This document shows, one piece after another, positions 3,001 through 19,559 of a DNA stretch of 64,000 nucleotides; the first letter of the stretch is position 1, and each line of letters begins with the position of its first letter. Under the pieces are notes generated by a model that saw only the letters and a list, made by a program, of their open reading frames with translations, searched no databases and was not told the DNA's origin. This stretch comes from Podarcis vaucheri (Eukaryota): NCBI GenBank assembly GCA_965113315.1, contig OZ220377.1; one strand, given 5' to 3'. Both the position numbers and the translations under genes were made by a program.

Positions 3001-3981
3001 TTTATGCTTTTAGATTTCTGAGCAAATGCCTGTTTTCTATTGGAGCGGCCTACACATATTGCTTGATTCTGACAATGGTAGGCCCTTTTCAAACAGGCCC
3101 TTTTTCTTTCCAAGAACTCTTCAGGCACTCGCAGAGCATGCAGACTGGAATCCCGTTGCGTCTCGGGCTGCAGTGTGGCGATGTGCCATCATCCCTTCCT
3201 GCTGAACGTGCTGTGGGGAGCACTGGAGGTGGACGGCATGAAATAAATATGGGAAATCTGTGTACCCACAGAAGAGGCAGCCTGCTGCCTCTCAGAACAG
3301 TGGGTGGCTCTCCCATTTCTCTAGATTCATGGAATTCTGGAGAGAGAAAACCCTCTGGCGCACAGGGGATTGGATCACTCAGTTGCTCTTGCAGAGGCAC
3401 ACAGCAGAATTGGCTCTTGCCTAGAACTGGAAGTAACTTTCCAGAGTTTCAGGCAAGGATGCTTTCTAACTACAGAGAAATGTTACCTCCATCATTAAAA
3501 GTAAGCCCCTTTCAGTCCTCTCTTGACTACAAGCTGCCTGTTATTAGGAACAGAACTAATTCATTGTTATTATTATTAGGATTAGGATTGATTGATTGAA
3601 TTTATATACCACCCTATACCGGTGGTTCACAGAATAAAATCAAAATATAGAACCACGAAAGACATAATCAAAATAAAACAACCCAATAACCCCCACCCAA
3701 AGAAACCCGTCCACATTTTAAAAGGGCATAGGATGTCAGTCAAATCAACAAAAGACCTGGTTAAAAAGGAACATTTTTGAGTGGCGCCTAAAGGTGTATA
3801 ATGAAGGCGCCAGGCAAACTTCCCTGGGGAGAGCATTCCACAGAGGGGGAGCCACTGCAGAGAAGGCCCCGTTCTCGTGTTGCACCCTCTGGACCTTTCA
3901 AGGAGTAGGCACATGAAGAAGGGCCTCAGAAGATGATCTCAGGGTCCAGGTCGGTTCATATGAAAAGAGGCAGTCCTTGAG

Positions 3982-4418
3982 TGTCAGGGAACTGCCATCA
4001 GAGGCACGGGAGAAGGAGAGGGTCTCTGATTCTGCAGGGGAAGGTCCAAGCACTAGAGGGAGACGCAGCCGGGTAGAAGGGGAAGAGAATGAGGGTAACA
4101 CCAGGGATTCAGGAGAGCAATGGGACAGGGAGGTGCAGGGGCTCCAGGACTCTTCGTTGGAAGTTAGCGAGGAGAGCCCAAGCACCCCGCTGCCCACGCC
4201 CACCCTGCGCAGGAGACTCCCGCGCAGTGAGAGGCAGAAACGATTGGGCGTCAAACAACTCTTATGTTGGCAACACTTTAAGAAACGCCCACAGACAGAT
4301 TCTACAAGTGACTAAGGGCAGCCACGCAAATATGGGCTGCGCAGTCCGGAGGGTTTAACCAGGCAATCCGATGCTCAAACGGAGCAGGATTACGCACGAG
4401 TAACTCCCAGCCACTACA
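3982..4418 (+). mobile_element. Solo LTR (Gypsy-like)
   Basis: TG...CA termini; perfect 5-bp TSD TTGAG (3977-3981, 4419-4423); cleanly splits the L2. Confidence 0.8.
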
Positions 4419-5041
4419 TTGAGGTATTGTGGTCCTGAGCTGTTTAAGGCTTTATAAGTAAAAAACCAGCACTTTGATTTGGACCAGGTAACCAATTGGC
4501 ATCCAGTGCAGTTGGACCAGGATTGGTTTAATAGGCTCAAAGTGTCTTGCTCCGGTAAGTAACCTGGCCACTGAATTCTGCACTAGCTGAAGTTTCCAAA
4601 CCGTCTTCAGAGGCAGCCCAATGTATCACACATTACAGTAATCTAACCTTGAAGTTCCCAGAGCAAAGATAACAAAAGTTAGGCTATCCTTGTCCAGATA
4701 GGGACGTAACTGGGCCACCAGCCAAAGCTAATGAAAGGCACTCCAGACCACTGAGGCCGCCTGAGCTTCGAGCAACAGCAAAGGATCCAGGAGTACCCCC
4801 AAGCTATGAACCTGCTCCTTCAGTGTACGTAACCCCATCAAGAGCAGGCAATCTCCCACCCATCCAGTCTAGGGAATCATCCAGGAACGGGGCTTCAGTC
4901 TTTCTGGATTGAGTTTCAGTTTGTTGGCTCCCATCCAGTCCATTGCCAAGGCAAGACACTGGTCCAGCACTTCCACGGCCTCACCTGCAGATGTAAAGCA
5001 GAAATAGAGCCAAGTGTCATCAGCATACTGCTGACAATGTA

Positions 5042-11860: not shown

Positions 11861-11972
11861 CCTGCGATAGCTCAGTCAGTAGAGTACCAGACTCTTAATC
11901 TCTGGGTTGTGGGTTCGAGCCCCATGTTGGGCAAAATTCCCCCACGTTGCAGGGGGTTGGGCTATATGACTC
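11861..11972 (+). mobile_element. tRNA-Lys(CTT)-derived SINE with partial CR1 tail
   Basis: TAGCTCAGTC.GTAGAG...AGACTCTTAATCTC.GGGT.GTGGGTTCGAGCCCCA.GTTGGGC, then GTTGCAGGGGGTTGG. Confidence 0.7.
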
Positions 11973-11992
11973 TCGCTTGGACCGTTGGTCCA

Positions 11993-12498
11993 CTAGCTCA
12001 ATATTGTCTCCTCTGACTGGCAGCAGCTCTCCTAGCTCAATATTGTCTCCTCTGACTGGCAGAAGCTCTCCTACCTCAATATTGTCTCCTCTAACTGGCA
12101 GCAGCTCTCCTACCTCAATATTGTCTCCTCTGACTGGCAGCAGCCCTCCTAGCTCAATATTGTCTCCTCTGACTGGCAGCAGCTCTCCTAGCTCAATATT
12201 GTCTCCTCTGACTGGCAGCCGCTCTCCTGGCTCAATATTGTCTCCTCTGACTGGCAACAGCTCTCCTAGCTCAATATTGTCTCCTCTGACTGGCAACAGC
12301 TCTCCTACTCAATATTGTCTCCTCTGACAGGCAGCAGCTCTCCTAGCTAAACATTGTCTCCTCTGACTGGCAGCAGCTCTCCTAGCTCAATATTGTCTCC
12401 TCTGACTGGCAGAAGCTCTCCTAGCTCAATATTGTCTCCTCTGACTGGCAGAAGCTCTCCTAGCTCAATATTGTCTCTTCTGACTGGCAGCAGCTCTC
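11993..12498. repeat. Minisatellite, 13 x 39 bp (CTAGCTCAATATTGTCTCCTCTGACTGGCAGCAGCTCTC)
   Basis: Thirteen units counted; unit 9 has a 1-nt deletion. Confidence 0.97.
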
Positions 12499-12829
12499 CG
12501 TGGTTTCAGGCAGAGGGCACTCCCAGCCTTGCCTGGAGAATGAACCTGGGATGTTCTACACGCAAGACAGCTGCTCTATTACTGAGCTACAGCCTTTACT
12601 GCGCTTCCAATAGGCCTCACTACCTGCATCAGGGCAGCAGACCTCAGTCCCCAAGGCTTGTTTGTTTTTGTGCAAGCAGGGAAGAGTTTTGCTGCATACA
12701 TTGGCAGCCTGCCCAGTATGCAGAAGGCCCTCCTTTGCCCCTCTGATCCCCATGTTTCCCGGCCCGGCACATATTCTCATAGGAATCCCTCTTTCGCCAT
12801 ACAGTATTAACACAGCCTTGTATCAAGTC

Positions 12830-17773: not shown

Positions 17774-18739
17774 AAAGCATGCACACAGAGCATGCATTCA
17801 TTGCAGAGCCGGCTTGCTCATTTGGCGGGGTGAAGCATCTGCCTCAGGCGGCAGAAACACAAGCACCCTGCCCGACGACTTCTGCCACCACTGGAACCCC
17901 TTTTCTCTTTAACTTTTTGGTGAAAGGGGAACTTTCCAGCATGTGGCATTGCTGTTTGTCTTCCTCACCACTGGGGTAGAGAAGATGTCATGGACTGGCT
18001 GCATGCAGAGACGTGGTGGGAGGCACCAGCTGGGGACCCCCAAGGGCACCCCTGGGGAAGAAGACTCCGAGCCGGTGGTGGGATGACGATGAGTGGTCAC
18101 AGGGAGAAGAAGGAGCAGACTGGGAGGAGCAGGTCAGAAACAGAAGAGGTAACAGGCTTTGGTGAGCAGGAAGAGGCTATGGCAGAGAGCAGTTCAGACT
18201 CTGAGGCAGAAGTGGAGGCTGGAGTGGTGTGGGGCCAGGAGACAGAGATGAGGCTGGCTGCTGAAGTAGCCAGGGAGTCTCCTCTTCCTGCTGTGACCAG
18301 CTCCCTTCTCCCCCCGTTCTCCTGGAACCTGCAGAGTTATGAAGAGGGCAGAGCAGAAGCGGGTTCTGTGCAGGCTCAGTCTATGACTGCTTGGGAAAGA
18401 CCCTGGAGAGGAGACAACTTAGGAATAGGGCAGGGCAATGTACATCGTCCAAAACCAGTTTCAAGTCCACATTGTGGTAACAGCTTCATAATACTCAACA
18501 TGGCGATATATCAGGAATCACAATGTGTGCGCGTGCTATGGAAAAAAAAGGGATGTGGGAAAAACCGTGGGCCCAGTCACCACTTCTTTCATGATTCCTG
18601 CCGCCCCTTTTGCTCTGTATTATAGAATAACACTTGTAACAATATAACATAAGTAAAACATATAAGGTAAGTTAAAATACTGTATATCAGTATTAGACCC
18701 CTAAGTAGCTGATGTTATCACCAGCTAAATATTGCAATA

Positions 18740-18943
18740 TAGTCGTACCTTGGTTTTCAAACAGCTTAGTTCTCAAATGTTTTGGCTCCCAGACGCTGCA
18801 AACCCGAAAGTGACGGTTCTGGTTTGTGAACTATTTTCAGAAGCCGAACGTCCGGTGCAGCTTCTGCAGCTTTGGTTTCTGAATGTTTTGGAAGTCAAAC
18901 AGACTTCCAGAACGGATTCCGTTCGGCTGCCAAGGTATGACTG
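18740..18943. mobile_element. Tigger-like MITE (CAGTCGTACC-type TIR)
   Basis: TIRs and TA TSD; homologous copy at 38575-38815. Confidence 0.75.
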
Positions 18944-18953
18944 TACTCATATA

Positions 18954-19115
18954 CAGTGGTACTTTGAGTTAAGAACTTAATTCGTGCTGCCGCCACACGA
19001 TTTCTGTTCTCATCCTGAAGCGAAATTCTTAACCCGAGGTACTATTTCTGGGTTAGCGGAGTCTGTAACCTGAAGCATCTGTAACCTAAAGTGTCTGTAA
19101 CCCGAGGTACCACTG
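18954..19115. mobile_element. Tigger-like MITE (CAGTGGTAC-type TIR)
   Basis: Same family as 5042-5250; TA TSD. Confidence 0.8.
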
Positions 19116-19559
19116 TATCACAATGTCTAAATAAGGATGGCACTACATAGAGGCAAAAGGGGCAATGTCCTGGCAACTGCTACTACTTAGGGGTCTAAAA
19201 TGTTGAAAACCAGACATTGCTCAGAAGTGGTGGGAAGGCAGGGACCTTCAGTCCTTGCAACAGCCCCGTTGGAGCAAGATCTACTGGAAAGAGTTGATGG
19301 GATCCCTAGGCCTGCACTGTTTGGGTTCCTTGAATAAAGAGTTGAGTATTTTTCTTCGATTGTTGACTTATGCTTGACTCCATCTTCTGATGGAAGATGA
19401 GCATCAAGGCCTTGTGGAGTGCTCCCTCGTTTGCCATTTGGTGAGGGGTGGGTGTGTGCATTCCAGCAGTTGCGGGAGGAAAGCGACACTGTGGGGCAGG
19501 GGGTGGCACATTCCCGTTTCGCCTCAGGTGGCGGAATGGGACAGGCTCGTTCATTGCAA

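Follow-up and report, generated by a model that had tools for sequence, protein, structure and literature searches.

A solo LTR from the lizard Podarcis vaucheri contains 109 open codons that are, with high confidence, the tail of a retrotransposon pol gene under protein-level selection. As this selected 3' end of pol, the codons probably encode a disordered integrase tail for nuclear entry and chromatin tethering of the integration complex. The pol-tail reading is supported by continuity with pol, selection on the amino acids, indels that keep the frame, and the same layout in distant families. If correct, the U3 of a vertebrate retrotransposon serves both as promoter and as selected coding sequence, a layout that we found described only for plant chromoviruses, and the thousands of protein-coding-looking LTR-like copies in the P. 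vaucheri genome are accounted for.

The LTR lies in a window of 64,000 nt (the whole stretch of DNA analyzed) from contig OZ220377.1. The 437-bp element (positions 3982-4418; this and the features within it are on the plus strand) has TG..CA ends and is flanked by a 5-bp target-site duplication (TSD), TTGAG, at 3977-3981 and 4419-4423, as the preliminary description had stated. The 110-codon frame reported there from LTR base 5 was also confirmed, as 109 sense codons and a TAA (4313-4315) at 3986-4315. In the window this pol end is orphaned: it opens at LTR nt 5 with AGG and has neither a start codon nor any Met. The peptide is as described, although its N-half is only mildly acidic (17 D/E vs 10 K/R in 62 residues). 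In 2000 dinucleotide shuffles, a frame of at least 109 codons occurred in 28% (six frames) or 17% (three frames), and in 2.7% when required to begin exactly at nt 5. The opposite strand across the LTR region is likewise open, for 137 codons. Thus, set against shuffled sequence, a comparison named in the preliminary description, the frame of this single copy is within chance; it is the comparative data that go beyond it.

This one LTR is located between genes and outside any gene body. The gene on its 5' side is presumably SRSF1-like, with a stop codon ~9 kb before the LTR and an end ~5.4 kb before the start of the window (L190, L191 region). We take a zinc-finger gene at 27000-54000 to be VEZF1-like, with a CpG island at 27-28 kb, ~23 kb past the solo LTR. 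Exaptation of the LTR by the host was considered and rejected, given ~97% identity to many copies and the lack of a start codon. Elsewhere in the window, a minisatellite-like tandem repeat (11899-12743) carries Ser/Pro-rich open frames on both strands.

A genome search returned 2985 LTR candidates. The best 40 of these scored 96-100% identical to the window LTR and are spread over many contigs (family A). We fetched the 30 best-scoring candidates, a choice biased towards intact copies; exactly 109 open codons are present in 27, and 94, 114 and 123 in the other three. Exact TSDs flank 16 of the 30 and a near-TSD one; seven are 5' LTRs, and six, preceded by a PPT, are 3' LTRs. We identified four paired elements (5.1-5.6 kb), all with TSDs and with LTR-LTR identities of 96.8-99.5%. 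Each is disrupted at some point, and two (L031 and L032), whose flanks are the same, go back to a single insertion that was multiplied together with its flanks in a segmental array (C29, 71.4-71.75 Mb). Pfam searches of the L032 frames identified Retrotrans_gag, zf-CCHC, protease, RVT_1, RT_RNaseH, rve, SH3_Tf2-1 and Chromo, and the sequence GGGAAAC is found at the end of gag in all six elements checked. Based on domain order, LTR ends and predicted self-primer, we assign family A to the Ty3/gypsy chromoviruses of Tf1/sushi type; its near-identical copies, and paired copies flanking gag-PR-RT-RH-IN-chromo, indicate that the solo LTR belongs to a young element.

Reading of pol into the LTR is clearest in L032. 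Here, a stop-free frame of 1256 codons encodes RT, RNase H, integrase, SH3 and a chromodomain (ending at residue 1052), crosses the PPT (translated ..REVDV), enters the nt-5 frame and finishes at the LTR stop. L033 is continuous from SH3, L034 is in the same frame with a stop just before the PPT, and L031 is frameshifted; thus only two of the four paired elements are continuous from SH3 into the LTR frame. Of 30 SH3-bearing loci, 10 are open all the way into the nt-5 frame; in another 15 the frame ends before the LTR is reached, and the remaining 5 arrive there out of frame. The preliminary description had proposed looking for an internal ORF that reads through the PPT into the LTR frame, and such ORFs exist. 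The distance from SH3 to nt 5 is divisible by three in 16 of 28 loci (p=0.008 vs 1/3; counted by hand, leaving out L065 and L092), and in only 4 of 11 loci of clade D. The entire tail also ends the Podarcis muralis UniRef proteins P0008 and P0015 (gene models) and the Logan proteins P0003 and P0018. With a profile, five matches were obtained among 1.84 billion representatives; these are P0003, three proteins from Podarcis and a repeat protein that is unrelated. Because of the continuity in L032 and the other SH3-bearing loci, and because Podarcis proteins end in the whole tail, we conclude that the LTR frame is the end of pol. Raw RNA from three runs yielded just 24-40 reads each, mostly 90-95% alike and without start or end sites, and the element is covered in one contig set of guessed RNA origin, neither of which is informative.

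The same genome contains a chromovirus of plain layout (L065), whose pol ends directly behind the chromodomain and leaves 41 nt up to the LTR; thus, the tail is not required by all chromoviruses. Contig C41 (41 of 1615 Mb) carries 20 of the 30 fetched SH3-bearing loci, and is possibly the W chromosome or another non-recombining region.

Five subfamilies, with LTRs 68-94% identical, retain the open frame. The preliminary description had suggested dN/dS between subfamilies and indel lengths as checks, and both point to a protein-coding frame. Using a maximum likelihood codon model with fitted kappa, dN/dS was 0.27-0.49 in six of six subfamily pairs (p from 3e-5 to 0.03), compared with 0.89-5.7 in shifted frames; the pairs share lineages and are non-independent. 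Constraint is strongest in the last 45 codons (0.16-0.32) and weaker in the first 60 (0.34-0.67, with p<=0.05 in three of six pairs). Values by the NG86 method are similar (0.28-0.47 for the whole frame in 10 subfamily pairs, and 0.15-0.29 over the final 45 codons, where dS is 0.27-1.3 and dN 0.05-0.21). Indels before the stop are of 3, 6 or 9 nt or occur as compensated pairs, and those after it, where the frame is lost, are mostly of 1-2 nt. Within family A, singletons have an uncorrected pN/pS of 0.54 and shared variants one of 0.60, and the two classes are not separated. Of the original proposal, that of a family-wide, coding, selected and mostly disordered peptide is upheld and that of a separate accessory protein is not.

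The LTR-encoded tail can be divided into three parts. Codons 1-62 (3986-4171) form a variable, mildly acidic spacer rich in E, S, G and R, predicted to be disordered (low pLDDT) and with the weaker dN/dS constraint. Codons 63-74 (4172-4207) encode an S/T-P block, ESPSTPLPTPTL, with candidate proline-directed phosphosites; an SP or TP site ahead of the basic block is found in families A-C and E and in the Podarcis proteins. Codons 75-109 (4208-4312), the best conserved by dN/dS, encode a basic block, a short predicted helix (VKQLLCWQ) and a second basic cluster. The order of basic block, hydrophobic residues, Cys-Trp and second basic cluster ends the tails of clades A-E, including clade D, where LTRs are only ~56-65% identical to those of A and unbroken copies have frames of 68-91 codons. 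The Cys-Trp codons (TGT TGG, 4265-4270, at -26 to -21 of the predicted R start) are kept in clades A-E. They occur in 31 of 59 LTR frames, and the absences are mostly broken copies or belong to an amplified insertion on C18. This insertion was multiplied with its flanks in a segmental array at 7.07-7.51 Mb (L167, L169-L176, L179, L180), and its copies have a common loss of the cysteine codon or frameshifts. In A and D the Cys-Trp codons keep a near-fixed spacing, 21-26 nt upstream of the predicted R start, and so a DNA element could account for the motif. An AlphaFold2 model of the 204-residue tail has a mean pLDDT of 54 and two short helices, one in a motif upstream of the LTR (motif 1, below) and one at VKQLLCWQ (H184-191). 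Searches of Pfam and the ESM Atlas with the 109 residues gave no match. The basic/Cys-Trp end may resemble the CENP-C motif, and RRSxRL strings may resemble the nucleosome motif of HMGN.

The 11 nt behind the 5' LTRs are complementary to LTR nt 310-320 (window 4291-4301, plus strand). In subfamilies A, B and D, this predicted self-primer in the LTR changes in step with the PBS; it would mark the U3/R border. The complement is exact over 11 nt in L032, L033, L034, L100 and L107 and extends over 7 nt in L031 and L108; no complement was found by exact match in L101, L102 or L105. Self-priming of the Tf1 type involves pairing between the PBS and the RNA's 5' end (excerpt of PMC4600332), a predicted mechanism that the self-complement fits. 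RNA would then start at or near LTR nt 310, and the frame would fill the predicted U3 and end just inside R. Because of this predicted start, U3 should be transcribed only at the 3' end of the full-length RNA, and the solo LTR's own promoter would not yield the peptide. The stop is found shortly past the self-primer start in clades with U3 of both 309 and 210 nt.

Similar frames are present in other LTR families. Family E (L160-L189), with a Pol 47% identical to P0008, has the layout of A (acidic spacer, S/T-P, basic block, Cys-Trp), and GGGDV leads into a ~113-codon LTR frame, with read-through in L161, L162 and L163. Its dN/dS is 0.30-0.38 in four of six pairs and 0.52 (p=0.08) and 0.92 in the others, and its in-frame indels (3, 12, 51 and 54 nt) are all multiples of three. 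A second LTR in the window (17986-19343, plus strand) belongs to a different, old family and is split by ~810 bp (~18414-19223); no TSD was found for it. It does read TGTC-ATG at 17986, as had been noted, with the ATG (17990) where the solo LTR has AGG. However, the two LTRs align only over ~85 purine-rich bases, and the ATG of this different family has no bearing on the solo LTR. The frame from this ATG is open for at least 163 codons, partly through frameshifts. Copies of the second family (75-83% identical, ~600 bp) have a similar order of acidic, SP and basic segments with many frameshifts, and none with internal sequence was found in two pattern searches and 60 fetched loci, some of them repeated. 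Another, related LTR family (L099, L148-L159) also has a TGTC-ATG start and an acidic, SP, basic frame; its L099 copy, which is frameshifted, follows a chromodomain and PPT. Cys-Trp is missing from this layout in the old TGTC-ATG families. A further repeat (L096, ~600-1100) has an acidic, proline-rich frame ending in SPRRSARLKAR, an end that we take to resemble the HMGN nucleosome-binding motif.

Upstream of the PPT, between it and the chromodomain, we identified two conserved motifs, each with a candidate helix, an acidic linker and FxGF, in clades A-D and the Podarcis proteins (L085:1909-2190 and equivalents). Examples are FWEEQF-GTTEEEES-FEGF and WEEVF-TPTDEEDSS-FRGF, with acidic linkers of 8-9 residues. 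In a TIM, a helix is followed by 8-16 residues of acidic linker and then by FxGF, which every known LEDGF/HRP2 partner requires (excerpt of PMC9987994). The motifs align with human ones (JPO2, VADIF-NAPSDDEE-FVGF; POGZ, LHQLF-EGESETES-FYGF) in P0032, P0034 and P0041. A TIM pattern, composed after the motifs were seen and recovering three of four human TIMs, was run on 29 loci (leaving out L070, a duplicate of L069), of which 18 have two matches, 7 a single match and 4 none. It has no match in the 127,996 six-frame residues of the window, and matches 0.07% of shuffled tails. The first F of motif 1 is replaced by L or M in P0002, P0008, P0015 and P0018, and family E lacks the TIM-like motifs. 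The low-confidence AlphaFold2 model has a helix at motif 1 (H9-16) and none at motif 2. Exons of LEDGF type and HRP2 type are present in the host genome. Complex prediction for the lizard LEDGF domain (P0021, 361-460) with motif 1 scored 0.15 and 0.16 against a mark of 0.34; alignments were unused and controls unfolded, making this evidence neither way. By their sequence the motifs resemble LEDGF-binding TIMs, and are candidates for such binding. No retrotransposon TIM was found among the open-access full-text matches listed. If the motifs bind LEDGF/HRP2, LEDGF-guided integration would have had an independent origin through motif mimicry.

We propose that full-length RNA is the sole template for the tail, which would be made as the last part of Gag-Pol via a -1 frameshift at GGGAAAC. 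Protease cleavage would leave the tail on integrase, and the freed integrase would comprise the chromodomain, the two TIM-like motifs, the spacer and the basic end. The basic/Cys-Trp end may mediate nuclear import and chromatin binding, tuned by the S/T-P sites, and the TIM-like motifs may bind the LEDGF/HRP2 domain for added tethering. The solo LTR in the window would be a passive copy of coding DNA, left by LTR-LTR recombination, as its TSD suggests, and likely gives rise to no protein. An integrase C-terminus that serves in import and targeting is known from Ty1, where the targeting domain is in the C-terminal NLS region (excerpt of PMC7459421). On balance, we favor nuclear import or chromatin tethering as the job of the tail. 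The fully modular version, in which one integrase tail combines a chromodomain, two LEDGF/HRP2-binding TIMs and a basic Cys-Trp segment that is encoded by the LTR, regulated by phosphorylation and used to enter the nucleus and bind chromatin, is put forward only tentatively. If true, a retrotransposon reaches the integration cofactor of HIV by mimicking cellular ligands, and every LTR copy carries a selected, protein-coding U3.

The preliminary description had envisaged a small accessory protein encoded in U3, conceptually like nef or sag. Such a stand-alone product could be made from a spliced RNA or with a start of its own. The frame does open directly behind TGTC, other old LTR families have an ATG at that position, and protease might free the tail as a peptide. 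However, codon 1 is AGG, and not the ATG anticipated for a consensus, in 29 of 29 aligned family-A copies (L010, with a 1-nt deletion, left out), and 27 of the 29 lack any in-frame ATG. An ATG at the PPT/LTR junction opens another frame, which neither the window copy nor subfamilies B-D keep open. Together with the continuity with pol and the predicted RNA start near nt 310, this makes such a protein highly improbable. There is also a slim chance that U3 is conserved as DNA (promoter and att signals), with pol merely running through T-poor sequence and the peptide tolerated, given that long frames are common at such composition, constraint on the first 60 codons is weak and the Cys-Trp codons keep their distance from the predicted R start. 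This idea is largely refuted for the final 45 codons, as synonymous change is high where amino acids are kept; moreover, shifted frames are unconstrained and indels respect the frame only as far as the stop.

Selection could instead act on the RNA, if reading up to the R start leaves a very short 3' UTR that protects from nonsense-mediated decay while the residues matter little. The position of the stop, just past the self-primer start despite the different U3 lengths, is as this idea would have it. Yet it explains the keeping of the frame and not the low dN/dS or the kept motif, and most ribosomes would presumably already stop at the gag stop ~4 kb upstream; we consider it very unlikely. Somewhat less unlikely, but still doubtful, is a signal for membrane or particle trafficking, in which a lipidated Cys in the basic-hydrophobic helix steers Gag-Pol or the integration complex, for example to the nuclear envelope. 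The hydrophobic-Cys-Trp-basic pattern is retained from family A to E, a short helix is predicted there, and we presume the Cys to resemble palmitoylation sites. However, long Arg/Lys blocks and S/T-P sites seem a better fit to nuclear import, and in the old TGTC-ATG families the acidic/SP/basic layout lacks Cys-Trp.

Like HIV nef and MMTV sag, the lizard pol tail is coding sequence that overlaps the U3 of the 3' LTR. Nef and sag are separate genes, each having a start codon and RNA of its own, whereas the lizard frame has no start and is fused to pol. Lentiviral integrases bind LEDGF via a folded core dimer and are not known to use a TIM for this. In their acidic linker and FxGF, the two lizard motifs match the definition of the TIM/IBM of JPO2, POGZ and MLL1 (excerpt of PMC9987994); compared with these cellular TIMs, they are located upstream of a PPT, outside the LTR.

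The element shares the gag-PR-RT-RH-IN-SH3-chromo order of the Tf1/sushi group (Tf1, Tj1, sushi-ichi; relatives of PEG10/RTL1). Its TGTCA..TACA ends are close to the att motifs of Sushi (PMC3601003, in part), its 11-nt self-priming complement fits the mechanism of Tf1 (section of PMC4600332), and GGGAAAC at the end of gag is shared with PEG10 (passage of PMC10570562). Unlike that group, it has a tail of ~200 residues behind the chromodomain, half of it encoded by the LTR, and its U3 is purine-rich, whereas that of fish Sushi is T-rich (PMC3601003, in part).

The closest parallel in layout is in plants. In the CRM group A (e.g., Beetle) and some elements of the Galadriel clade (Bingo), pol passes through the PPT into the 3' LTR, and the LTR-encoded part is the integrase C-terminus, a proposed targeting domain (excerpts of PMC3059260 and PMC3605345). 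Among the open-access full-text matches listed, we found no vertebrate case of pol entering the 3' LTR. In the lizard element, pol likewise runs through the PPT and the 3' LTR encodes the integrase C-terminus. Unlike CRM group A, in which a CR motif downstream of the PPT stands in for a chromodomain, it has a canonical Pfam chromodomain upstream of the PPT, ~95 codons before the LTR. It also differs from CRM and Bingo in its vertebrate host, its predicted self-priming (rather than tRNA-Met) and a frame that fills the whole predicted U3. The lizard element thus works like CRM group A without being a member of it.
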